From: a virus
Reading direction: 5' to 3' (one strand)
DNA: 64,000 bases
IMG/VR virus record: IMGVR_UViG_3300017698_000036
Span: 32,001-96,000 of that record
The position numbers and the translations under genes are program-made. The notes beneath the pieces were generated by a model, which was given only the letters and a program-made list of their open reading frames with translations, made no database searches and was not told where the DNA came from. Shown in pieces: positions 11,673 through 63,218 of this stretch; within the stretch, counting starts at the first letter, position 1; each line of letters starts with the position of its first letter.

Positions 11673-12005
11673 ATGACGCTTATCGACAGTATTAAGGGAA
11701 AGTACGATAGGGGTAAGTCTGCGTTTGATGTGTGGGAGGAGAGTGGACTTCTCGAAGGTCTACTTCTGGAGCATCAAAAGATAGTGGTCGAGTTTTTAGA
11801 TTTATGGTATATTGAGATATTGAAGATGAGAGACCCTACAACTGACAGCAGTTTTTACACTAAAGATGAGGTTGAGAGTTTTGCGTATATAGGGTTTCCT
11901 ATCGTAAGAAGAATTCTACAACCACTTTTAGAAAAATATGAATTGGTTTTGAGGACGGATGATGATGGTAAACATTCACTATTTTCGAAAACGTATAAGG
12001 AGTAA
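11673..12005 (+). CDS. Mini-protein homologous to major capsid N-terminus, with C-terminal DDGKHSLFS tag
   Basis: WEESGLLEGL and VESFAYIGFPIVRRIL match MCP WTKTGLLKGI and VEGFASVAFPLVRRIF; GGGAG SD. Confidence 0.75.
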   Translation: MTLIDSIKGKYDRGKSAFDVWEESGLLEGLLLEHQKIVVEFLDLWYIEILKMRDPTTDSSFYTKDEVESFAYIGFPIVRRILQPLLEKYELVLRTDDDGKHSLFSKTYKE

Positions 12006-12011
12006 AGATAA

Positions 12012-12329
12012 ATGAAGAAGGATATATTAAGTCAGCTTAAAGGAAGACAGTGTGAAATTACAACAATACCTACTGATGAGGAAAAACTCCGATTAGTAGA
12101 CAAGTGGACATTCGCCGGTCTTCTCGACGGGTTAGAGATTTCCGATAAAACTAAGTTGGCTATGATGTTAGAACTGACATCAATGTCACTTATTGAGTGT
12201 ATTAAGATAGAGGAGGAGATAGGTAGTGAGGTAGATATTGATCAATCGGCCGCCATAGTTTTTCCTATGATTGTGCGTACCTTCCACAGTATGAACGACT
12301 ATGGTCTTAAAATAGAACATAAGGAGTAA
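12012..12329 (+). CDS. Second mini-protein homologous to major capsid N-terminus
   Basis: KWTFAGLLDGL...KLAMMLE...SLIE...AAIVFPMIVRTF matches MCP KWTKTGLLKGI...NLAVLLE...SLITE...ASVAFPLVRRIF; AAGGAG SD. Confidence 0.75.
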   Translation: MKKDILSQLKGRQCEITTIPTDEEKLRLVDKWTFAGLLDGLEISDKTKLAMMLELTSMSLIECIKIEEEIGSEVDIDQSAAIVFPMIVRTFHSMNDYGLKIEHKE

Positions 12330-12335
12330 GTATAA

Positions 12336-13178
12336 ATGAAAAAAGAAGATAAAAAAGATGTACTGGTTGATGAGTGTACAAACGGTCTGCCCATCACCAT
12401 CGGGGTACCTGATGAGAGTGGAGATCTTAAGGCTGTAACCAATCCCAAACTAAAGGAGACGATTGAGTTGGGTAAAAAGATGCAGGCCGATGAAAGAAGT
12501 CATCAGAGTGAGGAAGACCGTGCACGCGGTGAGGCTATTGTAACCAACATTATAGATACCGTCTCTACAGAACTCTTGGGAGAAGAACCTGAAGAAAAAT
12601 GGCCTCCCAAGATGGATACTGATACGACGGTTAAGGGTGATCCACCCACTACAGAAGAGGCCAAGATTAATAAGGAGTTTGCAATCAAGAGAATTTCAGG
12701 TGAGTTGGATCTATCTGACGAACCTCCAGAGTGTAAATGTGGGGGAGAATGTACGTCACACAACACTCTGGCTGAGGCGGTGGGTATGAAACCTGGTGAT
12801 TTCGATAAGTTGGATCACTATGATGAGCTGGTCAAGGAGAATGGGAAGTTGAAGGAAGAAAAAACTAGATCCGATTTGTGGCAGGCCGATAAAAGAGGGT
12901 TTATGGATAGAGCCCTTGGCAAATTCGCGAGTAGAAAACTGTTAGCTTTTGCAGTTACCACCATAGCCTTCTTCATGGGTCTACTAGTGTCACAGTACTA
13001 TATGGCCATCGTTATGTGTTATATTGGTTCACAAACTGCAGTAGACATCTTTAATCGCGTTAAGCTACCAAGTGTAACCGACGCAGCCTGGGAATCACTG
13101 TCTCGTCGTAATAACACTGTTCCACAAAAACAGTCAGTCGAAAGTAAACCGACGTTAAAAAATAAAACATTTAACTGA
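12336..13178 (+). CDS. Putative holin-like membrane protein with long acidic N-terminal region
   Basis: Two short hydrophobic helices after SRKLL near the C-terminus; lies between the endolysin and spanin-like genes. Confidence 0.45.
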   Translation: MKKEDKKDVLVDECTNGLPITIGVPDESGDLKAVTNPKLKETIELGKKMQADERSHQSEEDRARGEAIVTNIIDTVSTELLGEEPEEKWPPKMDTDTTVKGDPPTTEEAKINKEFAIKRISGELDLSDEPPECKCGGECTSHNTLAEAVGMKPGDFDKLDHYDELVKENGKLKEEKTRSDLWQADKRGFMDRALGKFASRKLLAFAVTTIAFFMGLLVSQYYMAIVMCYIGSQTAVDIFNRVKLPSVTDAAWESLSRRNNTVPQKQSVESKPTLKNKTFN

Positions 13179-13283
13179 TTGATTTACTTATAGAAACTCC
13201 CACCTATCCCACCTCTCGAAATTTAAGTCTCACACAAAACTCACAAATCAAATAATTACATACATAACAAAGGGGAATATGAC

Positions 13284-13667
13284 ATGATGAATTCTATTAT
13301 ATATTTTGTAAAAGACTACTACCCTATTATGATCATTTGGGTTGTTATTACACTTGCCATTACGGGTCTGGTAAATAGTTGTAACAAGCGAGAGATTCGT
13401 AGATTGGAGAGTATCGTTAAGATCGACAAAGAGTACCACACCAAAGAAGTTAAAATACTCAAAGACACCCACGATAAACAACTTCAGGCTGTTATAGATA
13501 TACGTGATAAGTATGATGTCGAAATAAAGAAGGTTACAGAACAGTACCGCGACAACCTACAGACCATAAAAGAACAACAAGGTGTGGTGTATGATAAGTA
13601 TCTCAAAAACCAGGAACTTATGAGTCAGATGTTGACTAAATATTTCGGAATAAAACTTAGGAGATAG
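13284..13667 (+). CDS. Putative spanin-like protein (N-terminal TM + coiled coil)
   Basis: Hydrophobic IMIIWVVITLAITGLV followed by a charged helical region. Confidence 0.45.
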   Translation: MMNSIIYFVKDYYPIMIIWVVITLAITGLVNSCNKREIRRLESIVKIDKEYHTKEVKILKDTHDKQLQAVIDIRDKYDVEIKKVTEQYRDNLQTIKEQQGVVYDKYLKNQELMSQMLTKYFGIKLRR

Positions 13668-13671
13668 TTCT

Positions 13672-14145: not shown

Positions 14146-14153
14146 GTGGTAGT

Positions 14154-15136: not shown

Positions 15137-16840
15137 ATGCCCCCAAGAAAACGAAGGAAGAATAAAAACGGACTAACCTCGGCTCAAGTTAAGGAAGTTA
15201 GAAGGTGTGCAGCCGATCCAGAATATTTCATAATGAACTATTGTAAGATCAGAACACACAAGGGCGCCGTATTATTCAAACTCTATGACTATCAGAGAGA
15301 GTTACTTGGTAAATTTCATAAAAATAGAAATAATATTATACTGAAAGGAAGACAGCTGGGGATATCTGAGTTATCGGCCGCATTTTCGAACTGGTTAATA
15401 GTGTTTCATAAGCATAAAACTGTGTCTATATTGGCTACTGACATGAAACAAGCCATTCACCTTATGGACAAGGTTAAACTTTCGTATGATAATTTACCGG
15501 ACTGGATAAAAGCTCAAAACCCCAAAGAGAACGATAATCAACAGATGATTAAGTTGAAGAATGGGTCTAGTGTAATGTCCTATTCTTCTAGTGTCGATGC
15601 GGTACGTGGAACTACACCATCATTGTTGATTATTGATGAGGCAGCATTCATTGATGATATCGACGGTATATGGTCTGCAGCTAAACCGGCCCTAACGACG
15701 GGAGGGGCCTGTATCGTTCTTAGTACACCATTTGGAGCTGGTACTTGGTATCATAAACAGTGGTTGAACGCTATTGAGGGACTGAGTACTTTTGTACCCA
15801 CTCTTCTTATGTGGGATGTACATCCAGACCGGGATCAAGACTGGTATGCGCAGGAACTGTTGGACTTGGGTGAAAGAAAAATGGCCCAAGAGTATGAGTG
15901 CTCTTTCAACGCGTCCGGAGATACTGTAGTACATCCAGACATATTAAAGTATATAGAAGACAACTATATGTTAGATCCGGTGCACAAGATCGGTATCGAT
16001 GGTCAGTTGTGGATATGGGAAGAGTATAAAGACGGTCATGGGTACTGTATGTCGGTCGACTGTGCGCGGGGAGACGCAGAGGATTATCATGGTGCACACA
16101 TTATTGATACCACTACGATGGAACAGGTGGCAGAGTACCGAGGTAAGGTACCACTAGATGATTACTCTGAGTTTCTGTACAACCTGGCTCAACAGTATGA
16201 CAACCCGTTGATGGTAGTTGAGAATAATACGTATGGATATACTGTATTGAAGTCTTTACTCAAGAAGGGATATAAAAATCTTTATTACTCTAAAAGAAAA
16301 ACTAAGTATGATGAAGAAAAGATAGATTCCAAAAGAGGTATGTTACAAGACAATATGATCCCTGGATTTAATACCAGTGCATCCACAAGACCTATGATAG
16401 TGACCATTATGGAGAACTTCCTGAGAAACAAGACGATCAAAATACGTTCAAGTAGATTACTGAACGAACTCAGGTCGTTTATCTGGAAGGGACATAAACC
16501 TCAGGCCGCAAAAGGGTCACATGACGACCTGGTTATGTCTCTTTGTATAGGTTGCTTTATCGTCAACAATGTGTTTATTGAGGGCGGAGACAAAAGAAAG
16601 ATTAACATGGCCATTATGAACTCATTCAGAAAAAACAGTACTGTATTTAATACTGATACTGGACACTTAGCCGGTGTTGTTTATAGTGGGTCATCAATGA
16701 ATACACAACGTCAACAGTACATGGATACACATGGTAGATATGCTCGTATGTTGGATGATAGTGGTGGTCGAAAGAAAAGAAAAGTGGTAGACGATAATAA
16801 AAAGAAGAATGCATTCTTTTTACCGATCTATAAAGGATAG
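15137..16840 (+). CDS. terL: Terminase large subunit (T4 gp17-like)
   Basis: LKGRQLGIS Walker A, IIDEAAF Walker B, LSTPFG coupling motif; RNase H nuclease motifs SVDCARG, VVENN and HDDLVMS. Confidence 0.95.
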   Translation: MPPRKRRKNKNGLTSAQVKEVRRCAADPEYFIMNYCKIRTHKGAVLFKLYDYQRELLGKFHKNRNNIILKGRQLGISELSAAFSNWLIVFHKHKTVSILATDMKQAIHLMDKVKLSYDNLPDWIKAQNPKENDNQQMIKLKNGSSVMSYSSSVDAVRGTTPSLLIIDEAAFIDDIDGIWSAAKPALTTGGACIVLSTPFGAGTWYHKQWLNAIEGLSTFVPTLLMWDVHPDRDQDWYAQELLDLGERKMAQEYECSFNASGDTVVHPDILKYIEDNYMLDPVHKIGIDGQLWIWEEYKDGHGYCMSVDCARGDAEDYHGAHIIDTTTMEQVAEYRGKVPLDDYSEFLYNLAQQYDNPLMVVENNTYGYTVLKSLLKKGYKNLYYSKRKTKYDEEKIDSKRGMLQDNMIPGFNTSASTRPMIVTIMENFLRNKTIKIRSSRLLNELRSFIWKGHKPQAAKGSHDDLVMSLCIGCFIVNNVFIEGGDKRKINMAIMNSFRKNSTVFNTDTGHLAGVVYSGSSMNTQRQQYMDTHGRYARMLDDSGGRKKRKVVDDNKKKNAFFLPIYKG

Positions 16841-28119: not shown

Positions 28120-29898
28120 ATGTCTATTGTAAAACAACTTATGGAAAACAGAGTATCTCCGGTCAAAAGAAATGATCGTGAAACTGCTCGTAAAATGAAA
28201 AAATGGACCAAGACTGGTCTTTTAAAAGGTATTAAGGATGAGCAAGCTGTAAAGAATCTCGCTGTTCTCTTGGAGAATCAAGCCGAGTCTCTTATTACAG
28301 AAGCTTCCACAATGTCTGATGGTGCTGTTGAAGGTTTTGCCTCTGTAGCATTCCCCCTTGTACGAAGAATCTTTGGAGCTCTCATTGCTGACAGTATCGT
28401 ATCTGTTCAACCTATGAGCCTCCCCGCAGGTCTGGTATTCTTCCTTGACTTTACTTATACTGATACTAAACTTGGATATACCGCAGGTAAATCCGTGTAT
28501 GGTGGTGAAGTAGTTGGTGCAGGAATCGCCGGTGGTGTTGACCTCGATAATGATAATGGTTTCTATAACCTTAATACTGGTTACAGTTCTCCTGAATGGG
28601 TAGCTGAAAACGTAGCCGATATCGTATCCGCAGGTACTCTTGCTGACGATCAATTCCAAAATGTAGACTTCACCAACGGTGGAGCCGGCCCTTTCACAAG
28701 AGCCCAAATTATCACCAACGCTGATCAAGCTGACGTAGATTACGACGAAGACATTCTCACTGATGACGGTACTTGGTACTACAACAAATATGCTATTAGA
28801 CTTGCTACCACTGAGTGGGATAGAGTACAGTTTGATAATCTCGTATCTATGTTGTTTGCAGATCCTACCGCAGGAGCAAGTCTCTTTGGTGCAACAGCTG
28901 AAGTAGTTAGACGACTTAGTGACGTTACTAGTACTACTAACAGAACTATTAAGTTCTTAGTAAGAGCTACTAACATTGCTCATGTACCTATCTCTACAGC
29001 CAGTACAAAAGCTATTAACTGGGAATTCACAGTTAACGACAAGTATAAAGAAGGTACAAGTCTCGGTACAATCCTCGGTGAAGATTGGCACTTAGAGGGT
29101 CCAGATACCAGAACATCTGGTGCTGGATATGAAGATATGGCAGAGCTTGACATTAAGATCAACTCCCTGCCTATCGTAGCTCAAACCAAAAAACTTAAAG
29201 CTAAGTGGACCCCTGAATTGGGACAAGACCTCAACGCTTATCATAATGTAGATGCAGAAGTAGAACTTACTGGTATCCTCTCCGAACATATCGCTCTTGA
29301 GATCGATAGAGAGATTATCCTTGACTTAGTTAAGGGTGCAACAGCAGGTACTTATTTCTGGAACCGTAATCCTGGTAACTTTGTTAACAAGACTACTGGT
29401 GTTCTCATTACTGGCGCAACTGCTCCTGACTTTACCGGTAACGTATCTGAATGGTACGAAACTTTGCTTGAAACCATTAATGACCTCTCTGCAGTTATCT
29501 ACAGAAAGACTCTTAAGGGTGGGGCTAACTTCCTCGTATGTGGTCCCGAAGTATGTTCCTTGCTTGAAATGACCAACGGATTCCGCGCACAACCCATGGG
29601 TCCAGATGTAGCTACTACTTCTGCTGGTGTTGTTAAAGCTGGTTCTATTACTAAAAAATGGGATATCTATGTTGATGTATACTTCCCCAGAAACCTTATC
29701 CTTGTAGGAAGAAAAGGAAATTCTTTCTTAGAATCAGGTTATGTGTATTCTCCATATGTACCTCTTCAAGTCACCCCCACAATCTTTGGTACCGAGGATA
29801 TGACACCTAGGAAAGGTGTGATGACTCGATATGCTAAGAAAATGGTCAAGCCTGACATGTACGGTCTCGTTCGTGTAATCAACCTTATCCAAAAGTAA
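28120..29898 (+). CDS. Major capsid protein (T4 gp23-like)
   Basis: FPLVRRIF...SVQPMSLPAGLVFFLD, KKLKAKWTPELGQDL...EIDREI, YSPYVPL and PRKGVMTRY; probable maturation site LITE/AS. Confidence 0.95.
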   Translation: MSIVKQLMENRVSPVKRNDRETARKMKKWTKTGLLKGIKDEQAVKNLAVLLENQAESLITEASTMSDGAVEGFASVAFPLVRRIFGALIADSIVSVQPMSLPAGLVFFLDFTYTDTKLGYTAGKSVYGGEVVGAGIAGGVDLDNDNGFYNLNTGYSSPEWVAENVADIVSAGTLADDQFQNVDFTNGGAGPFTRAQIITNADQADVDYDEDILTDDGTWYYNKYAIRLATTEWDRVQFDNLVSMLFADPTAGASLFGATAEVVRRLSDVTSTTNRTIKFLVRATNIAHVPISTASTKAINWEFTVNDKYKEGTSLGTILGEDWHLEGPDTRTSGAGYEDMAELDIKINSLPIVAQTKKLKAKWTPELGQDLNAYHNVDAEVELTGILSEHIALEIDREIILDLVKGATAGTYFWNRNPGNFVNKTTGVLITGATAPDFTGNVSEWYETLLETINDLSAVIYRKTLKGGANFLVCGPEVCSLLEMTNGFRAQPMGPDVATTSAGVVKAGSITKKWDIYVDVYFPRNLILVGRKGNSFLESGYVYSPYVPLQVTPTIFGTEDMTPRKGVMTRYAKKMVKPDMYGLVRVINLIQK

Positions 29899-50813: not shown

Positions 50814-50814
50814 T

Positions 50815-51114: not shown

Positions 51115-51116
51115 AT

Positions 51117-51701
51117 ATGCAGGTACACTCTGTTCAAAGTTCAGTTGTAGAGGACTTGGAGATCAACGTACGACTGTATATACTCTACCTGATAACTCAC
51201 TCGAATCGATTCATAATAGATCACCAGAAAGGTCATGTGGCTCCTTTTTTTAACCTTGTATATGATAATGTCAATAAGAGAAGTGTTAGAGAGAGTGTGT
51301 CAAAAAATATGATATTAAAGCTTGACGAAGCCCATGACTTTAATACTGGATATAATGATATTGTTAATGATATTATGAAAAACTATCGTGAATATGAAAA
51401 TGACTCTTATACCAGTCTTGATTATGAGTCCAAAATGGCCGGTATTTTTCATAAGTGTGGCACGTGTAAACATTGCCGACCTCATGATATCGTGCCAATG
51501 GCGGTGGAGTGTATGTTAAGACGTCAGTTTGATGGATCCATCGGCCAGCCACCACCAGATGTGTTTTTGTACGAGGCCTTTGGTGCACGGGGAACTTTAA
51601 GACCCCCCTACTGTGACTACGAGTTTTCAGACGATAGTGTTTTCAATAATATGTATAAGATGTACAATGAAGACATAAAACCCAAGTTTCAATTGTTTTA
51701 A
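51117..51701 (+). CDS. Hypothetical protein with CxxCxxC motif
   Basis: KCGTCKHC; tightly packed in the operon. Confidence 0.55.
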   Translation: MQVHSVQSSVVEDLEINVRLYILYLITHSNRFIIDHQKGHVAPFFNLVYDNVNKRSVRESVSKNMILKLDEAHDFNTGYNDIVNDIMKNYREYENDSYTSLDYESKMAGIFHKCGTCKHCRPHDIVPMAVECMLRRQFDGSIGQPPPDVFLYEAFGARGTLRPPYCDYEFSDDSVFNNMYKMYNEDIKPKFQLF

Positions 51702-51703
51702 GG

Positions 51704-52588: not shown

Positions 52589-52593
52589 CTACA

Positions 52594-52833
52594 ATGTCTA
52601 AATTCAATCATAAATCCGTAACCGATAGAGACTTCGAACCCAGAAAAGGTGAAGAGTTTGACCCTATGAATGCGATCGATCTTGCGATGGAATCTTATGA
52701 CGACCAGAGAGAGAGTGAAAACGCCTGTAGTGCCAAGAATCTCAACAGACATGCGAAAAAACTTCGTAACGTATTCACTGATGAGTATGGTATGATTTGT
52801 GATCCAACAGACGGAAAGTGGGTAGAATGTTAG
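52594..52833 (+). CDS. Small hypothetical protein
   Basis: 79 aa; AAGGT SD; downstream of the internal promoter. Confidence 0.55.
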   Translation: MSKFNHKSVTDRDFEPRKGEEFDPMNAIDLAMESYDDQRESENACSAKNLNRHAKKLRNVFTDEYGMICDPTDGKWVEC

Positions 52834-53240: not shown

Positions 53241-53262
53241 AAAAATTAATTTAAAATAATCC

Positions 53263-53291
53263 TTGACAATAAGAAAAATATATGGTATAAC
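53263..53291 (+). promoter_or_regulatory. Strong sigma70 promoter for the SSB-recA block
   Basis: AT-rich UP region, TTGACA, 17 nt, TGnTATAAC. Confidence 0.85.
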
Positions 53292-53351
53292 TATAATAGA
53301 GGTAAAAACAGATTGTCTAACAATAAAGATAAAAAGGGAGAGCAAGAGGGG

Positions 53352-53483
53352 TTGAGTAATGTAAAATTCATTATTATAACGATTGTTTTCGTTATATTAG
53401 TGTTTTTATTGAATTATATTAATAAATTTAGTAACGAGGAATATGTGGTTAAACATGTTATTCCAGAAAGTGTAGGTAGATAA
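53352..53483 (+). CDS. Possible 43-aa membrane peptide (TTG start)
   Basis: Hand-translated LSNVKFIIITIVFVILVFLLNYINKFSNEEYVVKHVIPESVGR*; GAGGG upstream. Confidence 0.35.
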   Translation: MSNVKFIIITIVFVILVFLLNYINKFSNEEYVVKHVIPESVGR

Positions 53484-53502
53484 ACACATAAGGAGAAAAA
53501 AT

Positions 53503-54249
53503 ATGAAGATTGATATGGCTAAAATGAAGGCAGCTTTCAACAGACTTAATGGTAAAGGCGGATCTGGTGTTTGGTATAAGGCAACCGATGGAGATCAAAT
53601 TAGAATCTTACCAACCGATGATGGAGTACCCCTCAAAGAGTATTTCTTTCACTACAATGTTGGTGATAAGGGGTTTCTGTGTCCCAAGAGAAATTATCAT
53701 CAGGACTGTCCTGTGTGCGATTTCGTAAGTGAGTTATTCAATTCCGGTGAAGAGGACGAGAAGGAATTTGCAAAAAATATCATGGCCAAGCCCAGATATC
53801 ACAGTATCGTCGCCGTTAGAGGTAAGGAGGGTGACGGTCCCAAGATCTGGGCCTACTCTCCAACAGTATTCAAGTCCATCTTTGGTCTTATGTTGGATGA
53901 AGAGGATTTCGGGGATATAACAGCCGTAGAGTCCGGTAACGATCTTAAGGTTTCTGTTGGTAAACAAAAAGGTCAGAAATATGCAATGGCCACAGTAAGT
54001 CCTAAGCCTACTAAAACCCCATTATCTAAATCAACCAGTGGAAGCCTGAAGGATGACGTAATTGATGTCCTTCTACGGGAGCAACCAGTCGTTCTAGACT
54101 ATTTAGATAAACTTACTTCTGAAGAGGTAGGACTTAGACTCAAACAGTTGGTAGGTAAGGAAAAAGAGACTCAGGTTGAGGTTAATACCGCCAAATCTGG
54201 ATCCATTGATGAGAAGAAGAAAGAGATCGACGAGTTTCTAAATCAATAG
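53503..54249 (+). CDS. Single-stranded DNA-binding protein (gp32-like)
   Basis: IRILP, FHYNVG...CP...CPVC, KIWAYS..VF and DFGDIT...GNDL motifs. Confidence 0.85.
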   Translation: MKIDMAKMKAAFNRLNGKGGSGVWYKATDGDQIRILPTDDGVPLKEYFFHYNVGDKGFLCPKRNYHQDCPVCDFVSELFNSGEEDEKEFAKNIMAKPRYHSIVAVRGKEGDGPKIWAYSPTVFKSIFGLMLDEEDFGDITAVESGNDLKVSVGKQKGQKYAMATVSPKPTKTPLSKSTSGSLKDDVIDVLLREQPVVLDYLDKLTSEEVGLRLKQLVGKEKETQVEVNTAKSGSIDEKKKEIDEFLNQ

Positions 54250-54327
54250 TAGGATAATCGTTTCTTATATATTAACTTAGCTTAACATTTTTTTATTTCA
54301 ATATACAATTAGGAGAAAAGAGGGACG

Positions 54328-55497
54328 ATGGCTAGAAAGACTAAAACTAGTAGTAAGAATACGTCCGGTATGAGTTTTAGAGAGAAGTACGCAAAGAAAC
54401 ATGGTGCCCTCTCTACGTCTGAAAACAGTGCGGTTGATATGTGGATTCCAACTGGTTCAAGATGGTTGGATTCCATTATTAACGCAGGATCAATGGCCGG
54501 CATTCCCACAGGTAAGATTACCGAGCTGGCAGGGGAGGAGTCAACCGGTAAGTCGTATTTGGGTATGCAGATTGCAAAAAACGCTTTAGATATGGGCCTG
54601 ATGGTAGTATATCTGGACTCTGAGTCTACATATGATGACACTTTCATGGAAAAGGTTGGGATAGACCCAGAGAATGAAAGGTTTATTCACGCACCAGCCG
54701 GAACAGTAGAGAACGTGTTTGAGGTTATAGACGATATGACTAAGGAGGCTATCGAGGCCGAGACCAGGGTTGTTGTTATATGGGACTCAGTGGCCAATAC
54801 ACCTTCAAAGGTAGAGATGGCAGGAGACTTCAACCCCAACTCATCCGTGGCCGTAACCCCTAGAATTATTTCATTGGGGTTCAAAAAACTAACTCAGACG
54901 ATGGGACAGACTAAGACCACGTTGATTTGTTTGAATCAACTTAAAACTAAAATTCATACCGGACCCAATGCACATATTGCGGCAATGTTGGATCCATGGA
55001 GTGCCCCAGGGGGGAAAGGTATACCTTATAACGCTTCGATGAGAATATGGCTAACCAAGAGAAAGTCCAAATCTTCATTTGTTTATGACGACAATGGATA
55101 CAGGATTGGATCCGAGGTTAAATGTACTATCAAGAAGTCACGGTTTGGTAGTGAGGGACGTGTTTGTACGTTTAAGATCCTTTGGGGAGGGGATGAGGTC
55201 CGTGTTGCCGATGAAGAGAGTTGGTTTGAGGCTCTTAAGACATCTGATAGTCTTTCGGTTGGTGCATGGTGTAATCTTCTCGACACTGACGGTAATGTCA
55301 TTGGAGGTCAGTTTAGATCGAAAGATTGGTTAAAGAAGCTTGAGGATCCTGCGTTTAGAGCACGCGTGGAAGAGTTGATGGACGAGGAGGTTATATACAA
55401 ATTCCACTCTAGGAAAGGTAAGGCTAGTGATTATTATACATTGGAAGATGATCGGGAGGGGGAACATCCTATTGAACCGACCATAGAAGAGGATTAA
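54328..55497 (+). CDS. recA: RecA/UvsX-like recombinase
   Basis: GIPTGKITELAGEESTGKS Walker A; VIWDSVA Walker B; PGGKGIPYNASMRIWL. Confidence 0.92.
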   Translation: MARKTKTSSKNTSGMSFREKYAKKHGALSTSENSAVDMWIPTGSRWLDSIINAGSMAGIPTGKITELAGEESTGKSYLGMQIAKNALDMGLMVVYLDSESTYDDTFMEKVGIDPENERFIHAPAGTVENVFEVIDDMTKEAIEAETRVVVIWDSVANTPSKVEMAGDFNPNSSVAVTPRIISLGFKKLTQTMGQTKTTLICLNQLKTKIHTGPNAHIAAMLDPWSAPGGKGIPYNASMRIWLTKRKSKSSFVYDDNGYRIGSEVKCTIKKSRFGSEGRVCTFKILWGGDEVRVADEESWFEALKTSDSLSVGAWCNLLDTDGNVIGGQFRSKDWLKKLEDPAFRARVEELMDEEVIYKFHSRKGKASDYYTLEDDREGEHPIEPTIEED

Positions 55498-55508
55498 TTT
55501 TTTAAACT

Positions 55509-55533
55509 AAGGGTCCGTAAGGGCCCTTCTTTA
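55509..55533 (+). terminator. Intrinsic terminator after recA
   Basis: AAGGGTCC-GTAA-GGGCCCTT hairpin (GNRA loop, one G-U pair) followed by CTTTA. Confidence 0.7.
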
Positions 55534-55534
55534 T

Positions 55535-56521
55535 ATGGAGAGTAGATATAGGATGAGAAAGTTATATATAGATGGAAATAACACTTTTATTCGTCATTAC
55601 ACAGTCAATCCTGGTTTGAATGTTGATGGGTACCCTGTAGGCGGTATATTCGGTTTTCTTAGAGACGTGGGGAACCTTATGCACCTTAGTAGTCCGGATG
55701 AGGTGGTGATAGTCTGGGATGGTGAGGGTGGATCGGTAAAGAAACGTAAGATAATGAAGGAGTATAAGGAGGGACGTAAAGCTGTTTCTGGACCTAAACT
55801 AAATCGGGAGTATGAACTAGATCCGGGTGATGAAAAGTTAAACAGGTTCTTTCAAATGGATAAGTTGAAAGAGTATTTGGATTACACACCTATTAAACAG
55901 GTGGAGTTGGATGGTATAGAGGCTGATGATATCTTGGCTTATTTAGTTCAAAGGGACGCACGTAAGGGTCATAAGTGTGTGATCGTAAGTATGGATAAGG
56001 ACTTCTTACAGTTGGTTGACAGTAATGTTGTCATTTATAGACCTGTGAAAAAGGATGTATATACCGTTGATAAATTAGTAGAAGACTACGGTATCAGACC
56101 CAGAAACTTCGCTCTATATCGTTCTATGTTGGGTAAGGGAGATAAGAGCGACAATATAAAAGGAATTCAGGGAGTGGGAGAAAAGACATTTCTTAAGTTC
56201 TTTCCTATGTTCTCGGAAGATCGTGATGTGAATATAAATGAGGTGGTTGATTTCTGTCGTACTAATAGAAAGAAGTCTGTAAAATACGAAAGATGTGTAC
56301 AGGGATCGAATATTATAACACGTAATTATAGATTATCACAACTTTATTCCCCAATGATAGGGTCTGATAAGGTTTTAGAGTTAGAGTCTCAACTAGATGA
56401 CAATGATGGTAATTTTCAACATCACAATCTTATAATGTTGTTTAGAAAGGACGGGTTTCCCTTTATTGATGGTTTAGATAAGGCTTTTAGATACTTGAAG
56501 GGAATCGCGAAGAATTATTGA
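55535..56521 (+). CDS. 5'-3' exonuclease / T4 RNase H-like flap endonuclease
   Basis: IDGNN, VWDG, YKEGR, IEADDILA, SMDKDFLQL and DKSDNIKGIQGVGEKT; the start may be the downstream MRKLY ATG. Confidence 0.9.
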   Translation: MESRYRMRKLYIDGNNTFIRHYTVNPGLNVDGYPVGGIFGFLRDVGNLMHLSSPDEVVIVWDGEGGSVKKRKIMKEYKEGRKAVSGPKLNREYELDPGDEKLNRFFQMDKLKEYLDYTPIKQVELDGIEADDILAYLVQRDARKGHKCVIVSMDKDFLQLVDSNVVIYRPVKKDVYTVDKLVEDYGIRPRNFALYRSMLGKGDKSDNIKGIQGVGEKTFLKFFPMFSEDRDVNINEVVDFCRTNRKKSVKYERCVQGSNIITRNYRLSQLYSPMIGSDKVLELESQLDDNDGNFQHHNLIMLFRKDGFPFIDGLDKAFRYLKGIAKNY

Positions 56522-56533
56522 TGGAGTAGTATT

Positions 56534-56758
56534 ATGGAGTCTAGATGTCCCTACTGTAGAGAGATATATTGGAAGATATTTGTACAACGACCCTTTAAGG
56601 TTATTATAGATGGAGTACTTGAGACTGTGAATTTTGACAATGTACCTTATTGTCGATTTTGTAAGAGAGATGTACTGGAGATTAAACATATCATAATGGT
56701 AGAGAACTATCTGGATAAGAAATATAACGGTAAGGCTATATGGAGGAGAGATGAGTAA
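56534..56758 (+). CDS. Small Zn-ribbon protein
   Basis: CPYC and CRFC; GGAG SD. Confidence 0.55.
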   Translation: MESRCPYCREIYWKIFVQRPFKVIIDGVLETVNFDNVPYCRFCKRDVLEIKHIIMVENYLDKKYNGKAIWRRDE

Positions 56759-58592
56759 CGCAAACGGTGGTATGGTAAACTTTGCCAATTTCGGTACTAA
56801 GTTTCAAAGAAAATTAGGACAGGTTATGTTTGAGGAACATCTCTTCGCAGATCAGATGTTTGAGGTACTGGAGAATGAGTTCTTTACCGTTGGTTACGTT
56901 AGAGAGTTTATTAGATCCATAAAGGACTACAAGGAGAAATATGGAGTATTTCCCTCGTATGATATAATGGATACCGTTATAACAACTCAGATGGATGATA
57001 TGTCTGACATTGTTAAAAAACAGGTAATGGAATATTTCACCGATATGAAGAGTTCTGTTGTACAGGATAAGGAGTTCATAAAGGGAAATAGTTTAGACTT
57101 CTGTAAAAGACAAGCCTTAAAAAGGGCCCTCCTAGAGGTGGTGGGTTCGGTTGAGTCTGGTTCGTATGAAGATGCAGCCCGTACAATTGAATCCGCCCTG
57201 GCCTTGGGATCGAACAGAGATATGGGTCATACCATTATTGATGACTTCGAGGCCAGATATATGTTACAGCCAAGAGTACCAATACCCACAGGACAGAAGG
57301 CCTTGGATGATCTTATCGGTGGTGGATTGGCTAAGAAGGAGTTCGGTATTTTCGTTGGTGGAACAGGATGCCACGCTAGGGGGGCGGAGATCATGTTGTA
57401 TAGTGGTGATACACTATTGGTGGAGGATGTTAGGGTCGGTGAACTCCTCATGGGCCCTGATGGAAGAAGTAGGGTGGTTACGAGATTGTATAGAGGTACC
57501 TCTGACATGTATAGAATTACACCTGATGTAGGTAAATCTTTTGTGGTCAACGGAGAACATATACTGTCCTTAAAACACTATAAGACTGGTAAGGTGGTGA
57601 ATTTAAGTGTCAATGCTTACCGTGATAGGAACGATGAGTTTAAGTCTATTTATAAATTGTACAAGGTTATAATTGATAGGGATTTGGGAGACGAATTTAT
57701 TGATCGTCAACCAAGTAAGGATTCTCTATTATCAGATTTCAGACTAAGCTCAGAGGGGAGGGATGACTTTTTTGGGTTTAATCTTTCTGGTGATCATCTA
57801 TATTTGATGTCTGATTTCACAGTCACACACAACTCAGGCAAGAGTATTCAAATGGTTAATTTCGCTACTGATGCTATTTTGAACGGATATAATGTAATTT
57901 ATTATACCTTAGAACTTCAAGACAGTGTGGTGGGTAAAAGGTTTGATAGTTGTATAACTGGATTCCCTATGAGTGAGTTAGACAGCAACAAGGAGTTTGT
58001 ATATCAGGGTTTATCGGACAAGGTAACCGGTAAATTGATAATCAAAGAGTATCCGCCTGGTTACTGTACTGTGGCTATGATGAAGAATCATATTGAGAAA
58101 ACGTCTAGAACCCTGTTCAAGCCGGATTTAATCATTGTGGATTATGCTGATATTATGAAGGTGGTGGTCAGTAAGGGAGATTCGCGATATGATGCATTGG
58201 GATCCCTATATACTGAATTGAGGGGAATCGCCTCTCATTACAATGTGGCTTTATGGACAGTATCTCAGGTTAACAGAACCGGGTACTCTTCTGAGTTAGT
58301 ATCGGTTGATAATTTAAGCGACGCGTTCAATAAGGCCTTCATTGCCGATTTAATTGTGACTCTACAGAGAAGCCCTGCACAAAAACAAAAGAATGAGGCG
58401 ACATTCTTCTTGGCTAAAAATCGTAATGGTCCTGACGGTATAATACTTAAGGGACGGGTTAATCCTGGATGTATGCAGGTTAATATTGATGGTGAGAAGT
58501 CGTTTGAGGAACATAGTACTGACCAGAAGGACCTACAGAAGGACCTTAAGGATAGGATATTCAATAAATTCTCCAATCTCAAGAATTCTTAA
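56751..58592 (+). CDS. dnaB: Replicative DnaB-like helicase (gp41-like) with intein
   Basis: Split Walker A GGTG|...|SGKS; YTLEL; IIVDYADIM; WTVSQVNR; KNRNGPDG. Confidence 0.92.
   Translation: MSNANGGMVNFANFGTKFQRKLGQVMFEEHLFADQMFEVLENEFFTVGYVREFIRSIKDYKEKYGVFPSYDIMDTVITTQMDDMSDIVKKQVMEYFTDMKSSVVQDKEFIKGNSLDFCKRQALKRALLEVVGSVESGSYEDAARTIESALALGSNRDMGHTIIDDFEARYMLQPRVPIPTGQKALDDLIGGGLAKKEFGIFVGGTGCHARGAEIMLYSGDTLLVEDVRVGELLMGPDGRSRVVTRLYRGTSDMYRITPDVGKSFVVNGEHILSLKHYKTGKVVNLSVNAYRDRNDEFKSIYKLYKVIIDRDLGDEFIDRQPSKDSLLSDFRLSSEGRDDFFGFNLSGDHLYLMSDFTVTHNSGKSIQMVNFATDAILNGYNVIYYTLELQDSVVGKRFDSCITGFPMSELDSNKEFVYQGLSDKVTGKLIIKEYPPGYCTVAMMKNHIEKTSRTLFKPDLIIVDYADIMKVVVSKGDSRYDALGSLYTELRGIASHYNVALWTVSQVNRTGYSSELVSVDNLSDAFNKAFIADLIVTLQRSPAQKQKNEATFFLAKNRNGPDGIILKGRVNPGCMQVNIDGEKSFEEHSTDQKDLQKDLKDRIFNKFSNLKNS
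57369..57833 (+). mobile_element. Mini-intein (155 aa, no endonuclease) in the helicase P-loop
   Basis: Starts CHARGAEI, ends FTVTHN, +1 Ser; block B VNGEHILSL. Confidence 0.92.
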
Positions 58593-58836
58593 GTCGATCT
58601 CCGTAGAGGTACCAAATTTACATTCTGACGTACTTTTACCATCATTGATGTAAAGACACTAGTCATAGAAATAAACGTCAAAATGACCACTAAAAATTAG
58701 TTTAAAGGGTGTATTGATATTAATTCGGATAAATGGTTTGGTTTCGGAAATTTACCAACATATGTCATAATTAATTGTTACGCGGAGGCCGAATTGTTAA
58801 CAGACTATAATAAGTTTTTATAAAATAGGAGATATA

Positions 58837-61248
58837 ATGGGAATGATCTATACGGAAGAACGGGTACGTGAGGCTACATTAAGTTACTTTGACGGAGATG
58901 AGTTGGCAACTAACGTCTTTATGTCAAAGTATTGTTTGAGAGATAGAGTGGGTAATTTTTTAGAGTTAACCCCTGATGATATGCATCGGAGAATGGCGAA
59001 GGAGTTTTACAAGGCGGAGAGTGTCTACGGATCCTACATGACCGAGGAAGAGATCTATAACCTATTTAAGGACTTTAGATATATAGTGCCGGGAGGTTCT
59101 ATCATGTCTGGGTTGGGTGATGACGGTAGGTTGGTTAGTTTGAGTAACTGTACGGTTATTAAACCCCCCGAAGACAGTATAACCAGTATTATGGACACTG
59201 GTAGAGACATGGCCAATCTATTTAAGGCAAGGTGTGGAGTTGGAACTGACTTATCTCAATTAAGACCACATGGATATAGGGTTAATAATAGTGCGAAGTC
59301 ATCTACGGGTGCTTGGTCTTTTGCAAACTACTATTCTGAGGTCACCAAGTCTATCGGACAATCTGGTCGCCGTGGAGCTCTTATGGTGTCCATGGATGTG
59401 TCTCATCCGGATATATTCAAGTTTGTTACATGTAAGAAGGATCTGTCTAAAGTAACTGGTGCCAATATAAGTGTTAAGATTGATGACGAGTTTATGATGG
59501 CTGTCATGAATGATGATAAATATATGTTGAGGTGGAAAGAGTGCGAGGTCGAGATAGACGCTCTGGAACTTTGGAACACGATCGTCTCTACGGCTACCAC
59601 GACGGCCGAACCCGGTATTCTGTTTTGGGATCATCATCTAGATTATAACCCAACTAGTGTATACGATGAGTTAAGGCCTTGCGGAACCAACCCCTGCGGC
59701 GAACTTCCTCTGTCCGATGGTGATGCCTGTAGGTTAATGGCCTGTAATCTGGTTCATTTTGTCGAAAACCCATTTACCGACAAAGCCAGATTTAATTATG
59801 AAGAACTTAGAGACAGATTCACGAAGTTGACACGTCTAGGTGATGACTTGGTCGATCTTGAGTTGGATAAAATAAAATTGATCATGGATAAGGCTCGAGC
59901 CGAAGGTGACGTCGGAGTATTGTCTTTGTGGGACAAGTTCTTAAAGAAAGGTGAGCAGGGAAGACGACTGGGACTGGGTGTATTGGGTTTGGCCGACACC
60001 CTAGCCAGTCTGAAATTGAGATACGATTCAAATCTGGCCATAACGGAGGTCGATAAGATATTTAAGACAATCTTAGAGACCACCTATGAGACATCTATCC
60101 AGTTGGCCAAGGAAAGAGGTCCGTTCCCCCTGTTCGATTGGGAAAAAGAAAAGGATAATGAGTTTATAAAGTCGTTACCTCAAAAGATAAGACACGATAT
60201 GGCTCAATACGGTAGAAGGAACAGTACTTTGTTAACATGTGCACCCACCGGTTCTGGAAGTCTACTGGCCAAAGTATCATCGGGAATCGAACCAGTATTT
60301 CAAAATGATTATAAGAGAAGAAGAAAACTGGACAGTTCGGTAACCGGAGAGGGTATCATTACAATGGCCGATGGACAGAAGTTCGAGGAGTACGTGGTAT
60401 ATCATCACAACGTTCAGGACTTTATCAATAATCATAACAACGGTGATAAGGAACTCCCAGACTACTTTGTAACATCTGCGGATATAGATTGGCGTCAAAG
60501 AGTTAAGATTCAAGCTACAATTCAAAGATATATTGACAGTTCCATCAGTTCTACTATAAATCTCCCTAGAGGTACTTCGTCCAGTGTTGTGGGTGATATT
60601 TACCTAGAGGCCTGGAAGCAAAAACTGAAAGGTGTCACTGTGTATGTGGAAGGATCCAGAGAGGGAGTCCTAGTTGCTACTGATACAGAGGAAGAACGAA
60701 AATACCACGATCCCATCAGACGACCAGATGAGTTGGAGTGTGAGATACATCATACGTCTGTTAAGGGTGAGAAGTGGGTAGTGTTCGTGGGAATGTTGAA
60801 TGACAAACCCTATGAGGTATTTGGTGGTTTAAGTGAGTATATTGATTTGAGTAAGAAGTACACAAGCGGCCATATCGTGAAGAGAACCTACAAGACTAAA
60901 CACAACAGGTACGACTTGATAATCAATAAGGATCGAGAGGACGAAATTACTATTAAGAATATTGTTAAAATGTTTGAAAACCCCAACCATGGTGTTCTGG
61001 GAAGATTAATCAGTCTGTCTCTGAGACATGGTGCTCGTTCTGCATACGTAACCGATCAACTATTCAAGGATACTGAATTTGACTTTACAACCTATAGTAA
61101 AGTGATGGGTCGAATTCTGAAGAAGTATATCGGTGACGGAGAGGAGCCGGAGACGGAAGAGCACTGTAAAGATTGTGGTGGTAAGATGATATTCCAGGGA
61201 GGCTGTAAAGAGTGCGAGGGTTGTGGAAATTCGTACTGTTCCGGTTAA
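58837..61248 (+). CDS. nrdJ: Class II (adenosylcobalamin-dependent) ribonucleotide reductase
   Basis: PGGSIM, SLSNC, TNPCGEL, RRLGLGVLGLAD, APTGSGS..SSGIEP, SSISSTIN; C-terminal CxxC...CxxC tail; no NrdB gene nearby. Confidence 0.85.
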   Translation: MGMIYTEERVREATLSYFDGDELATNVFMSKYCLRDRVGNFLELTPDDMHRRMAKEFYKAESVYGSYMTEEEIYNLFKDFRYIVPGGSIMSGLGDDGRLVSLSNCTVIKPPEDSITSIMDTGRDMANLFKARCGVGTDLSQLRPHGYRVNNSAKSSTGAWSFANYYSEVTKSIGQSGRRGALMVSMDVSHPDIFKFVTCKKDLSKVTGANISVKIDDEFMMAVMNDDKYMLRWKECEVEIDALELWNTIVSTATTTAEPGILFWDHHLDYNPTSVYDELRPCGTNPCGELPLSDGDACRLMACNLVHFVENPFTDKARFNYEELRDRFTKLTRLGDDLVDLELDKIKLIMDKARAEGDVGVLSLWDKFLKKGEQGRRLGLGVLGLADTLASLKLRYDSNLAITEVDKIFKTILETTYETSIQLAKERGPFPLFDWEKEKDNEFIKSLPQKIRHDMAQYGRRNSTLLTCAPTGSGSLLAKVSSGIEPVFQNDYKRRRKLDSSVTGEGIITMADGQKFEEYVVYHHNVQDFINNHNNGDKELPDYFVTSADIDWRQRVKIQATIQRYIDSSISSTINLPRGTSSSVVGDIYLEAWKQKLKGVTVYVEGSREGVLVATDTEEERKYHDPIRRPDELECEIHHTSVKGEKWVVFVGMLNDKPYEVFGGLSEYIDLSKKYTSGHIVKRTYKTKHNRYDLIINKDREDEITIKNIVKMFENPNHGVLGRLISLSLRHGARSAYVTDQLFKDTEFDFTTYSKVMGRILKKYIGDGEEPETEEHCKDCGGKMIFQGGCKECEGCGNSYCSG

Positions 61249-61291
61249 TATCCCCACTTTCTTTCCTTTCTAATAATTCTTAAAATAATAC

Positions 61292-61319
61292 TTGACAATT
61301 GAATAAAATGGGGTATAAC
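61292..61319 (+). promoter_or_regulatory. sigma70 promoter for the downstream small-gene cluster
   Basis: TTAAAATAATAC UP region, TTGACA, 16 nt, TATAAC; near copy of the 53263 promoter. Confidence 0.75.
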
Positions 61320-61373
61320 TAAGGTATTGGTGGACTAACAATTTTCACCGTTAACATAGGAAGGATTTAAAAT

Positions 61374-61961
61374 ATGACATGTATTATTGGTTTAGTAGAT
61401 AAAGACGGAAAGACTTACTTGGCTGGTGACAGTATGGGATATGCCAATGTTTCATGGGGAACCCCGGTATCCAATCCCAAGGTTTTCAAGGTAAAAGATA
61501 AACCCATTGTGTTGGGATACACTACAAGTTTTAGGATGGGCCAATTGTTGGAATTTCATCCTGAGATATTTCCAGATCTACATAGAGACAAAACTGAATA
61601 CACACGTGAATATATTATCAGGGAGGTAATTCCTAGATTACAGGGACTCTATAGAGAGTCTGGATGGGGTAAGAAAGATGGTGATGGGGCCGCAGATGGA
61701 GGAACTTTCCTAATTGGTGTCCCCGGAGCCGTTTATACCGTACAGGACAATTTTGCAGTACTGGAACATATCCATGGTTATGAGGCCTGTGGGTGTGGTT
61801 GTTACGCCGCCTGTGCCTCGGTAGCTACATCTTGTAAAAATGGTGTAGAGGATCCAAAAACGATCCTCAAGGCCGCCATGGAAGTTACCGTACAGTACTC
61901 TCCTGGGGTTCAACCTCCATTTCACTATGTAACAACAGATGGTGAGGCTGGAGAGTTGTAA
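61374..61961 (+). CDS. HslV/proteasome-beta-like Ntn-hydrolase protease
   Basis: M-TCIIGL...LAGDS, KVF, GY..SFRMGQLL and ACGCG..AA; N-terminal Thr nucleophile. Confidence 0.8.
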   Translation: MTCIIGLVDKDGKTYLAGDSMGYANVSWGTPVSNPKVFKVKDKPIVLGYTTSFRMGQLLEFHPEIFPDLHRDKTEYTREYIIREVIPRLQGLYRESGWGKKDGDGAADGGTFLIGVPGAVYTVQDNFAVLEHIHGYEACGCGCYAACASVATSCKNGVEDPKTILKAAMEVTVQYSPGVQPPFHYVTTDGEAGEL

Positions 61962-62149
61962 TGGGGTTTATCAAATATTTACTAAAATCCATTTGGCGAT
62001 GGTTTAAGCAGTTGGGTTTCATTATTATAATATTTCCGTTCTTTCCAATATTGTGGGTTTATCTAATGCTGGCCGACAAGAAGGAGGAGTATGACAACCA
62101 TATTGCAAACGAGAAATTACACAAAAAAGATAAGTCTGGAGATTTGTGA
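61961..62149 (+). CDS. Small membrane protein
   Basis: Single hydrophobic segment; overlaps flanking genes. Confidence 0.55.
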   Translation: MGFIKYLLKSIWRWFKQLGFIIIIFPFFPILWVYLMLADKKEEYDNHIANEKLHKKDKSGDL

Positions 62150-62505
62150 TGATTATCAGGTTGCGTGAGTATGACAAGAAGGGCTTTAGAATGTTTACCA
62201 TTTTTGATACGGAGGGTATGGACTTGTATGTCTTCTTGGTTCAATTAAAGGCTCACTTAACGTCCAATTTGGTTACTTGGAGCGATTCAGAAGATAAGTG
62301 TCGTGTGTCAAAGATAGATTTTGATTATTTTGATCAAATAGCCGAAGAGTATGGTATGCGTGTTGATGAGCTAATTTGTGAGATAGAGGATATGGACTTT
62401 TGTGTATCTATCGACAACGTCGCACAGTTTGTTGTGATAGGTTGTTCAAGACCAACGTACAATGATGGTAAGCGCTCGCTATTTTCAGAGGTGTATCATG
62501 AATAG
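62146..62505 (+). CDS. Small protein, tagged paralog family member 1
   Basis: Ends NDGKRSLFSEVYHE; FDYFDQIAEEY...VDELIC core. Confidence 0.7.
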   Translation: MMIIRLREYDKKGFRMFTIFDTEGMDLYVFLVQLKAHLTSNLVTWSDSEDKCRVSKIDFDYFDQIAEEYGMRVDELICEIEDMDFCVSIDNVAQFVVIGCSRPTYNDGKRSLFSEVYHE

Positions 62506-62845
62506 TTGGAGAGATAGATGTTTTATGTTGTATTACGAAGAAGAGCTCGGCCGAATGAACGCAGTAGTAAACATGACCAATTACAATGACTGGCCATTAA
62601 CTGAGGATAAGTTAATTAGGGATTGTCGATGGGCTTGGGATATGTTACAGTATTATAACGGGCCCGGTGTAAGATACCGTTCAGAGGCTCTAGATTATTT
62701 TAATTTAGAATTCAACTTCAACCTTTCAATTGAAGACCTGTTGGGTGATTCGTATTTTATAAAAGAACAAGATTCAGAGTTTTTGATTTATAAGATTGAA
62801 CCCAGTAATGACGGTAAACACTCACTATTTTCAGAGGTGTATTGA
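62498..62845 (+). CDS. Small protein, tagged family member 2
   Basis: ATG 62498 after GAGGTG, in frame with track ORF 62462; ends NDGKHSLFSEVY. Confidence 0.7.
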   Translation: MNSWRDRCFMLYYEEELGRMNAVVNMTNYNDWPLTEDKLIRDCRWAWDMLQYYNGPGVRYRSEALDYFNLEFNFNLSIEDLLGDSYFIKEQDSEFLIYKIEPSNDGKHSLFSEVY

Positions 62846-62846
62846 G

Positions 62847-63218
62847 ATGAACTTAGATAGGTATGGTATAGTGTTTAAAAGATACCAAGAGGAAACGCTC
62901 GAATGGACCTACTTCATATGTTCTAAGAGGGGTAGAGGTAGACGAAGATACTCTAAGCAAGGAGAGTGTTTGTGTGTTCTGAGAGAGATGATAAGAAATA
63001 TTTGTAAACGAAATGTATTGGAGGAGTTATACATTCCCTTTGACTGTTTTGATGCAATATGGGAAGAGTTTAATGAATATGAATTAAACGTTTCTGAGTT
63101 AATATGTGATGATATAGACATCAAACGTGACTGTTATGACGGTACTGGAATAACGTTTACGTATGGTGGATTCTTTATCCCCGATGATGGTAAACATTCA
63201 CTATTCTCTAAGTTTTAA
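62847..63218 (+). CDS. Small protein, tagged paralog family member 3
   Basis: ATG 62847 after GAGGTG, in frame with track ORF 62796; FDCFDAIWEEF...VSELIC core; ends DDGKHSLFSKF. Confidence 0.7.
   Translation: MNLDRYGIVFKRYQEETLEWTYFICSKRGRGRRRYSKQGECLCVLREMIRNICKRNVLEELYIPFDCFDAIWEEFNEYELNVSELICDDIDIKRDCYDGTGITFTYGGFFIPDDGKHSLFSKF

Follow-up and report, generated by a model that had tools for sequence, protein, structure and literature searches.

A C-terminal Leu-Phe tag shared by small, mostly unrelated proteins of an uncultured T4-like phage

Introduction

Why do small proteins of different origin, encoded by a single phage, end in the same short peptide? This question is raised by a 64,000-nucleotide stretch of virus record IMGVR_UViG_3300017698_000036 (the window; record bases 32001-96000), in which four open reading frames (ORFs) end in closely similar tails built around the motif [DN]DG[KR]xSLFS. 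The record stems from an uncultured T4-like phage of ~139 kb. Analysis of the record as a whole shows that the four tails belong to a larger set: 21 small, mostly unrelated proteins, which amount to ~14% of the genes (about one in seven), carry [SQ]LF at or close to their C-terminus. We establish the motif, its excess, its position, selection at the peptide level, the unrelatedness of the bodies and the restriction of the tag to one lineage; a single reader of the tag, and its identity, are what we infer.

Extent of the tag and its two forms

The record represents one IMG/VR virus and comprises 138,656 bp (38% G+C, estimated completeness 70%). The six-frame scan took in the whole record, and the gene set used for the counts comprises 145 genes; nearly all genes of the record lie on the + strand. 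Positions are given in window coordinates unless marked as genome positions, which refer to the record.

An earlier note on the window had described four ORFs with in-frame tails (carriers 1 to 4 below). All four exist at their positions, with the ends as claimed. They are listed here together with two carriers of the shorter tag form and one untagged paralogue.

10176..10805, + strand: terminal-tag carrier of 209 residues; body similar to the ATPase part of the large terminase (TerL); ends ...NSHTFSLF-stop
11673..12005, + strand: carrier 1, 110 residues; body similar to the N-terminal ~95 residues of the phage's own major capsid protein (MCP); ends ...RTDDDGKHSLFSKTYKE (tail DDGKHSLFSKTYKE; motif 11961-11987)
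12012..12329, + strand: second mini-capsid, an untagged tandem paralogue of carrier 1; ends ...SMNDYGLKIEHKE, without the SLF core
51117..51701, + strand: terminal-tag carrier of 194 residues, Cys-rich, without family; ends ...KPKFQLF-stop
62146..62505, + strand: carrier 2, 118-119 residues; ends ...YNDGKRSLFSEVYHE (tail NDGKRSLFSEVYHE; motif 62461-62487)
62498..62845, + strand: carrier 3, 115 residues from the ATG at 62498 (ORF open from 62462); ends ...SNDGKHSLFSEVY (tail NDGKHSLFSEVY; motif 62807-62833)
62847..63218, + strand: carrier 4, 123 residues (ORF open from 62796); ends ...PDDGKHSLFSKF (tail DDGKHSLFSKF; motif 63183-63209); body related to that of carrier 2

When the scan is extended to the whole genome, the set turns out to be larger than noted before, with eight rather than four copies of the long form. 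All eight occurrences of [DN]DG[KR]xSLFS are in frame on the + strand; their ORFs encode 87-135 residues, and 3-13 residues separate the motif from the stop. Four motif starts fall in the window (11961, 62461, 62807 and 63183) and four beyond it (genome 98065, 99677, 126073 and 127110). In addition, [SQ]LF-stop is the exact end of 13 further + strand ORFs. Twelve of these are in the 145-gene set (nine QLF, three SLF), and the thirteenth encodes 31 residues behind a good ribosome-binding site. The expected number of such ends is 0.05 based on amino-acid composition, or ~0.15 based on stops in non-coding frames (17 of ~16,600). A similar picture is obtained for [SQ]LF at any position: the gene set contains 36 instances against 15 expected, and 20 of the 36 are found within 13 residues of the C-terminus. 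Away from the C-termini the tripeptide is present at the expected level, so the entire excess is confined to the last 13 residues. The feature is real and statistically overwhelming at the protein level.

The short form (13 proteins) is of the type ...K-F-Q-L-F-stop, and the long module (8 proteins) can be written as P-x-[DN]-D-G-[KR]-x-S-L-F-S-x-x-Y. L-F is present in 21/21 tags, preceded by S in 11 and by Q in 10; 13 tags end at Phe and 8 continue for the few residues mentioned above. Most tags, long and short alike, have F, H or Y directly ahead of S/Q, often with a basic residue one place further upstream (position -5 is K/R in 13/21 tags and Q in 0/21). Because of the shared F/H/Y we read the long and short forms as one core motif, (K/R)-(F/H/Y)-(S/Q)-L-F. 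The 10 residues ahead of the terminal tags are Pro/Lys-rich and contain somewhat more polar linker-type residues (0.67 against 0.59).

Constraint on the peptide and history of the copies

The differences among the copies had been described earlier as mostly synonymous and as pointing to selection on the peptide. Both statements are borne out by the data. Pairwise identity among the eight long tags amounts to 84% at codon positions 1 and 2 against 54% at position 3. Moreover, Gln is encoded by both of its codons and Leu by five in the short form, and Ser by four in the long form. The DNA 3' of the tag stops differs by copy, with the ribosome site of the next gene in some cases and promoter-like sites in others. 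Since third positions and codons vary and the downstream sequences differ, the constraint falls on the peptide rather than on DNA or RNA.

The codons also hold information on the origin of the tags. All 16 Ser codons in the long tags are of the TCN type, though AGY makes up 36% of the Ser codons of the genome, and the Leu codon CTA is over-used. The uniform TCN usage indicates descent of the eight long tags from one ancestor. The 23 identical nucleotides reported between the copies at 11961 and 63183 are confirmed; given the same peptide and the codon usage of the genome, the probability of such identity is P = 0.0015. It is therefore probable that the capsid-like carrier received its tail through copying of DNA from a gene resembling the one at 62847. 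The suggestion that the motif is a recombination junction thus holds in part: one DNA-level tail transfer is probable, but as a function the junction does not survive, as codons vary freely and flanks differ.

Origin of the carrier bodies

Comparison of the bodies without their tags reveals a single detectably related pair, 62146 and 62847 (Z 6.1; 40% identity in a stretch of 62 residues); every other pair remains at Z <= 2.4. The mini-capsid body had been called unrelated to the bodies near 62 kb, which is correct (Z <= 1.6), but two of the three latter bodies are related to each other. Searches of the carriers against Pfam, PHROG and NCBIfam gave no family match apart from phrog_2 for the terminase-like carrier. 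For two carriers the source of the body can be indicated from the phage itself, the parent proteins being the following:

28120..29898, + strand: major capsid protein, T4 gp23-like; parent of the carrier 1 body; no tag
15137..16840, + strand: large terminase; parent of the body of carrier 10176-10805; no tag

Carrier 1 is 33% identical to residues 29-89 of the phage's own MCP (E 5e-4) and matches the MCP of a relative, G001 (see below), at E 5e-8. Together with its untagged paralogue it aligns with the MCP N-terminus over the pattern KKW.K.GLL.G ... VEGFA.VAFP.VRR. The ORF at 10176 matches residues 48-205 of the phage's own TerL (E 4e-6) and the phrog_2 terminase large subunit family (E 1e-7). 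Region 10176-12329 thus contains three small intact mini-genes (one for the ATPase part of TerL, two for the MCP N-terminus) beside an endolysin-like gene, and two of the three are tagged.

The earlier note had judged the tag portable, and we agree: it sits on bodies of different origin. Because the MCP- and TerL-derived bodies are tagged while their parent proteins are not, the tail is portable between folds, and the long module has moved onto at least one foreign body. The isoelectric point and Cys content of the carriers are like those of the other small early proteins. An ESM Atlas search with a carrier of 252 residues gave no usable match, and an AlphaFold2 (AF2) model of carrier 4 from an 8-row alignment reached a pLDDT of 50 and is uninformative on the tail.

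Distribution outside this genome

The tag system is private to one lineage. A word-indexed search of 5.8 billion protein clusters with carrier 3 returned only carrier 3 itself, and a profile of the eight tails (HMMER, 1.84 billion representatives, E <= 0.001) returned eight proteins, whose lengths equal those of the genome's own carriers, and nothing else. Scanning IMG/VR for [DN]DGKxSLFS gave six stretches, none with a convincing C-terminal tag. In a motif scan of 241 million metagenome records, none of the 86 matches is related, and their number is about that expected by chance according to our estimate. Using the MCP (~50% identity), we found five related records (G001-G005; 390 ORFs), of which G001 is complete at 184 kb. 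The motif is absent from these relatives, and 0/390 of their ORFs end in [SQ]LF. KVS ends in G001 were considered as an equivalent tag and rejected, as they belong to an ordinary paralogue family.

G001 and the tagged phage have 58 core genes in common. Also missing from G001, besides the tags, are the mini-capsid and mini-terminase genes, the homologue of the proteasome and the family of leucine-rich-repeat-like (LRR-like) proteins described below. The closest cultured phages infect Microcystis, Rhodothermus and Flavobacterium. The host is not inferable, with no tRNAs in the record and only 35-44% MCP identity to these phages.

Genome content and genomic setting of the carriers

Recognisable genes include those for the T4 gp23-type MCP and TerL. 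The replication set consists of a DnaE-type replicase, a PolA-like protein, RecA, a FEN-type exonuclease, DnaB with an intein and a gp32-like SSB; the DnaB-like helicase is split by a Hint/intein domain (56751-58592). Nucleotide metabolism is represented by ThyX, a GMP-reductase-like enzyme and an ORF of 803 residues that resembles ribonucleotide reductase (named by eye, without family search; 48% identity to a G001 protein). Furthermore, the phage encodes a GroEL-like chaperonin, a ClpP-like protein, a proteasome-family peptidase and a zincin plus VWA protein adjoining a MoxR-type ATPase. Such a load of peptidase and chaperone genes is unusual.

Promoter-like sites of the sigma70 type (TTGACA-N16-17-TATAAY, often with TAATCC ahead) are clustered at genome 81-138 kb. 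About 20 near-consensus sites at genome 81000-138600 (window 49000-64000 and beyond) mark this as the early region; the structural region has no site of comparable quality, save three within genes. About 19 of the 21 carriers lie in the 81-138 kb region among small ORFan genes, and several are followed by a promoter-like site downstream. The remaining two are located in the late region beside the endolysin-like gene (named by eye, without family search).

Carriers 2-4 form a five-gene unit with two upstream genes:

61374..61961, + strand: proteasome-family (HslV/BPH-like) N-terminal nucleophile (Ntn) peptidase; first gene of the carriers 2-4 operon; candidate reader only
61961..62149, + strand: ORF of 62 residues that includes a hydrophobic segment; placed between peptidase gene and carrier 2, with start and stop overlapping these neighbours

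The genes of this unit overlap or abut. A promoter-like site lies ahead of it (genome 93292), and no terminator-like sites were found inside it. The assignment of the peptidase to the proteasome family is well supported by sequence and model: it matches phrog_1040 (E 6e-14), has 94 homologues and gives profile matches to BPH and HslV; its invariant T2, D19 and K36 correspond to proteasome Thr1, Asp17 and Lys33; and the AF2 model (pLDDT 94) has its best Foldseek matches to BPH (5ovs; TM 0.71-0.75). The closest homologue of this stand-alone threonine peptidase, at 66% identity, is found in an unrelated phage contig of 24% GC, and the gene therefore seems to move between phages.

Several other genes of the early region deserve mention. 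The LRR-like family has 9-10 small members (window 52818-53240; genome 96315, 96668, 118340, 118876, 119932, 123807, 126514 and 129935), with a varying number of 20-residue repeats (LxLxxTNITxLPDNLxVxG) behind a near-invariant N-terminal module, M(I/L)VTT(E/K)HIFDE..YPWD. As in the tag carriers, an invariant end is combined with a variable binding body. At genome 127232-129911, one gene downstream of a tagged gene, a putative zincin domain (DUF2201_N) is combined with a VWA-like part in one protein that adjoins the MoxR-type AAA_5 ATPase. This pair also occurs in G001; a search of the genome for the VWA_2 domain gave no match. Two family matches are below threshold: a SprT-like metallopeptidase (genome 122905-123321), 2 nucleotides upstream of an SLF-tagged gene, and an HSP20/alpha-crystallin domain (genome 115725-116372) in a protein ending ...TINIPVT, an IxI-like tail.

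The tag as a proposed docking handle

With modest confidence we interpret the tail as an exposed handle, for docking or as an address, that a single partner would recognise. A linear peptide of this kind fits the data because the tag is tiny and terminal, its L-F is invariant, any body is tolerated, the lead-in of the short form is polar, and selection acts at the protein level. The invariant Leu-Phe would insert into a hydrophobic pocket of one common reader, which would then treat ~21 otherwise unrelated small proteins as a single group, with the variable body as bait or effector and the tail as the common handle. As to the reader itself, proteolytic or AAA+ machinery is our tentative first candidate; the host beta clamp and some other reader are both unlikely in our view.

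If the reader is a protease, the tail may set the turnover of the carriers or deliver bound targets. Candidates of this class are the phage proteasome homologue, the pair of zincin-vWA protein and MoxR, the ClpP-like protein and a Lon/Clp-type protease of the host. A link of this kind is suggested by the peptidase with intact Thr/Asp/Lys residues that heads the unit of three carriers, by the absence of both peptidase and tags from G001, by the terminal position of the tag, and by the presence of ClpP-like, zincin-vWA and MoxR-like genes in the genome.

Several observations weigh against the docking reading or its protease variant. The carriers adjoin peptidase genes no more often than expected by chance (our estimate), and the peptidase homologue of 66% identity in the other phage contig has no tagged neighbours; a link between peptidase and tag was also sought in the neighbourhoods of peptidase homologues and is not supported. 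No gene for a Clp/Hsp100-type unfoldase was found, the sole AAA_2 match being weak and located on the MoxR-like gene. As eight tags are followed by further residues, not every tag can depend on a free carboxylate. For the long module, which has a patterned strand upstream, a structural hairpin is another possibility. Because the tag occurs in one genome only, co-variation with a reader has no comparison set, and comparative tests of any reader are thereby removed. Finally, among the candidates considered no common reader was identified; the only PDZ model tried, PF13180, has no match in the genome. Docking or targeting, as proposed in the earlier note, is thus still the idea that fits the data best.

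A further-reaching version, which we think quite unlikely, regards the carriers as a library of adaptors. Their bodies would bind different host targets, and the handle would plug these baits into one machine, ideally a protease such as the phage proteasome homologue, so that the host targets are destroyed or sequestered. Capsid and terminase are protein classes that trigger bacterial immune sensors, and the capsid- and terminase-like fragments might then act as mimics that capture the host sensors of those proteins. Since immune sensors recognise these classes, the presence of capsid and terminase pieces among the carriers makes a decoy or adaptor role directly testable. If true, the adaptor library would be a bacterial-virus counterpart to viral hijacking of ubiquitin ligases.

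Irrespective of the reader, ~14% of this phage's genes, almost without exception early-region ORFans, share one peptide. If one reader exists, it would provide a common pathway for ~20 proteins without an assigned function, as well as a portable tag with a defined cellular fate.

Alternative explanations

The tails may be variant clamp-binding peptides that bring their carriers to DNA-loaded host beta sliding clamps, or block the clamp for host factors. We regard this as unlikely, although part of the evidence is attractive. With their invariant L-F and, in 11/21 cases, S as the third residue, the tags resemble the QL[SD]LF motif, SLF matching its last three residues, and terminal placement is typical for clamp-binding motifs; the delta-subunit MSLF and UmuD TFPLF sequences also resemble the tag. 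Phage precedents are available in MuC and Mor of Mu and in the tails of T4 gp43, gp33 and gp55. Furthermore, a host clamp must be used, as DnaE is present and a clamp gene is absent from the record and from its complete relative: neither the gp45-type clamp (PF02916) nor DnaN domains gave a match in the record (estimated 70% complete) or in G001. A protein of 372 residues upstream of DnaE was considered as a clamp and rejected, its look-alikes being viral hypothetical proteins and nucleotidyltransferases.

The same comparison also reveals where the clamp falls short, both as an explanation of its own and as the reader of a docking handle. Gln at position 1, the most conserved feature of QL[SD]LF, is absent from 21/21 tags, and 10/21 have Gln at position 3, where S/D is expected. 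No recognisable replication protein is tagged: DnaE, FEN, PolA-like protein, RecA, DnaB and SSB all have other C-termini. DnaE itself has a different pattern as its presumptive internal clamp motif, EELMF (EEFLF in G001), and G001 also needs a host clamp yet is without such tails. The specific clamp-binding proposal of the earlier note thus fails on the most conserved residue of QL[SD]LF.

Two observations on the replication genes and on similar motifs belong here. The DnaE-type replicase is encoded at genome 102991-106506, its probable clamp motif following the HhH domain (LEELMFGG; IEEFLFNE in G001), and a clamp-loader gene was not detected in the record or in G001. Two further small proteins (genome 131495-131656 and 131923-132336) have KQLF or DQLF at residues 6-9. 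These could be N-terminal versions of the handle and would suit the clamp as well, but they are within chance (P ~0.1, our estimate).

There may also be no common reader at all. In that case a single, rapidly evolving family of paralogues would have [DN]DG[KR]xSLFS as its conserved structural end, either a beta-hairpin or a strand for dimerisation, and [SQ]LF-stop would be unrelated or coincidental. The shared descent suggested for the eight long tags by their TCN and CTA codons agrees with such a family, as do the alternating stretch of hydrophobic or aromatic residues and the Pro that precede the DG turn in most long copies; homology of the bodies is clear for one pair and marginal for a few others. 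We nevertheless doubt this account. One copy sits on an MCP-derived body, so that the module is not tied to one fold. The polar residues D, G, K/R, S and S are as invariant as L and F, and the rest of the proteins has diverged past detection. The chance that a conserved 9-residue block contains [SQ]LF by coincidence is ~0.002 by our estimate, and a family trait cannot account for 13 unrelated bodies that end exactly in [SQ]LF-stop.

Loading into the virion is improbable. In this case the tail would send its carriers into the prohead for injection with the DNA, like the T4 capsid-targeting sequence or the cargo peptides of encapsulins. Two carriers are indeed located in the late/structural region, one of them copies the MCP N-terminus, which contacts the scaffold in T4-type heads, and encapsulins are known to have C-terminal cargo-loading peptides. 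However, ~19 of the 21 carriers reside in the early region among sigma70-type promoters, which makes the packaging signal mentioned in the earlier note a poor fit. The T4 capsid-targeting signal, moreover, is N-terminal and is cut off by the head protease, and relatives with the same head genes are without such tails.

Least tenable is a DNA or RNA element that merely overlaps the ORF ends (a recombination junction, part of a terminator or promoter, or a translation signal): the tag pair with 23 identical nucleotides and the promoter-like site after several carriers would suit it, but it is largely refuted by the codon data (free third positions, five Leu and four Ser codons), the downstream contexts vary by copy, every copy of the motif is read in frame within a long + strand ORF, and the operon has no terminator-like sites.

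Comparison with known systems

To our knowledge, shared terminal docking peptides in phages have been known on a very small scale only, such as on the three clamp-binding proteins of T4 and the two of Mu, or as individual degrons. The present tag is not described in the literature that we searched.

The closest precedent is found in T4, where an interchangeable short hydrophobic C-terminal tail docks the unrelated proteins gp43, gp33 and gp55 on one clamp hub (PMC2988020). In both phages, one short C-terminal peptide is present on functionally unrelated proteins. The differences are that there are ~21 carriers here against 3 in T4, that none is a recognisable replication or transcription protein, that a gp45-type clamp gene was not found, and that the sequence pattern is another one. 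In phage Mu, MuC (QHDLF, QPDLF) and Mor engage the host clamp, and Mor works with DLF alone (PMC12867686). Like QL[SD]LF, including the motifs of MuC and Mor, the tag ends in L-F, often with S before it, and is placed at protein termini. Unlike QL[SD]LF, it is without the defining Gln in 21/21 cases and half of the tags have Gln for S/D, and the likeness is one of sequence only.

C-terminal degrons, such as the ssrA-type tags (LAA) and the C-motifs of ClpX (RRKKAI), resemble the tag in being short and portable between proteins, which they mark for one machine; of the tags, 13 form the very end of their protein, and several peptidase genes are present in the phage. The sequence, however, is neither LAA nor RRKKAI, eight tags are followed by 3-13 residues, and a dedicated unfoldase was not found. 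As to the T4 capsid-targeting sequence, the tag differs in being C-terminal and in having most of its carriers among early sigma70-type promoters.

In the vWA-MoxR conflict systems a zincin peptidase is combined with small, fast-diverging proteins that have a conserved C-terminal peptide, with FxSxx, RxD or acidic motifs (Kaur et al. 2020, PMC7159879). Here too, small diverging proteins keep only a C-terminal peptide, and a DUF2201_N zincin-VWA protein by a MoxR-type AAA_5 ATPase lies one gene from a carrier. The motif, in contrast, is not FxSxx, RxD or acidic, only 1-2 of the 21 carriers are near the DUF2201_N gene, and the zincin-vWA/MoxR pair is also present in the tag-less G001.

A comparison can finally be made with eukaryotic systems. 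Poxvirus ankyrin proteins with a PRANC/F-box-like C-terminus and the cellular F-box/SOCS-box adaptors have folded handles of ~40 residues with known readers. They resemble the arrangement proposed here, in which a variable target-binding body and an invariant C-terminal handle would connect to one machine, although the handle in our phage is a peptide of 4-14 residues rather than a folded domain of ~40 residues. Summarizing, the shared terminal docking peptide is known as a kind, and what is new is its scale, its sequence, and the capsid- and terminase-derived proteins among its carriers.

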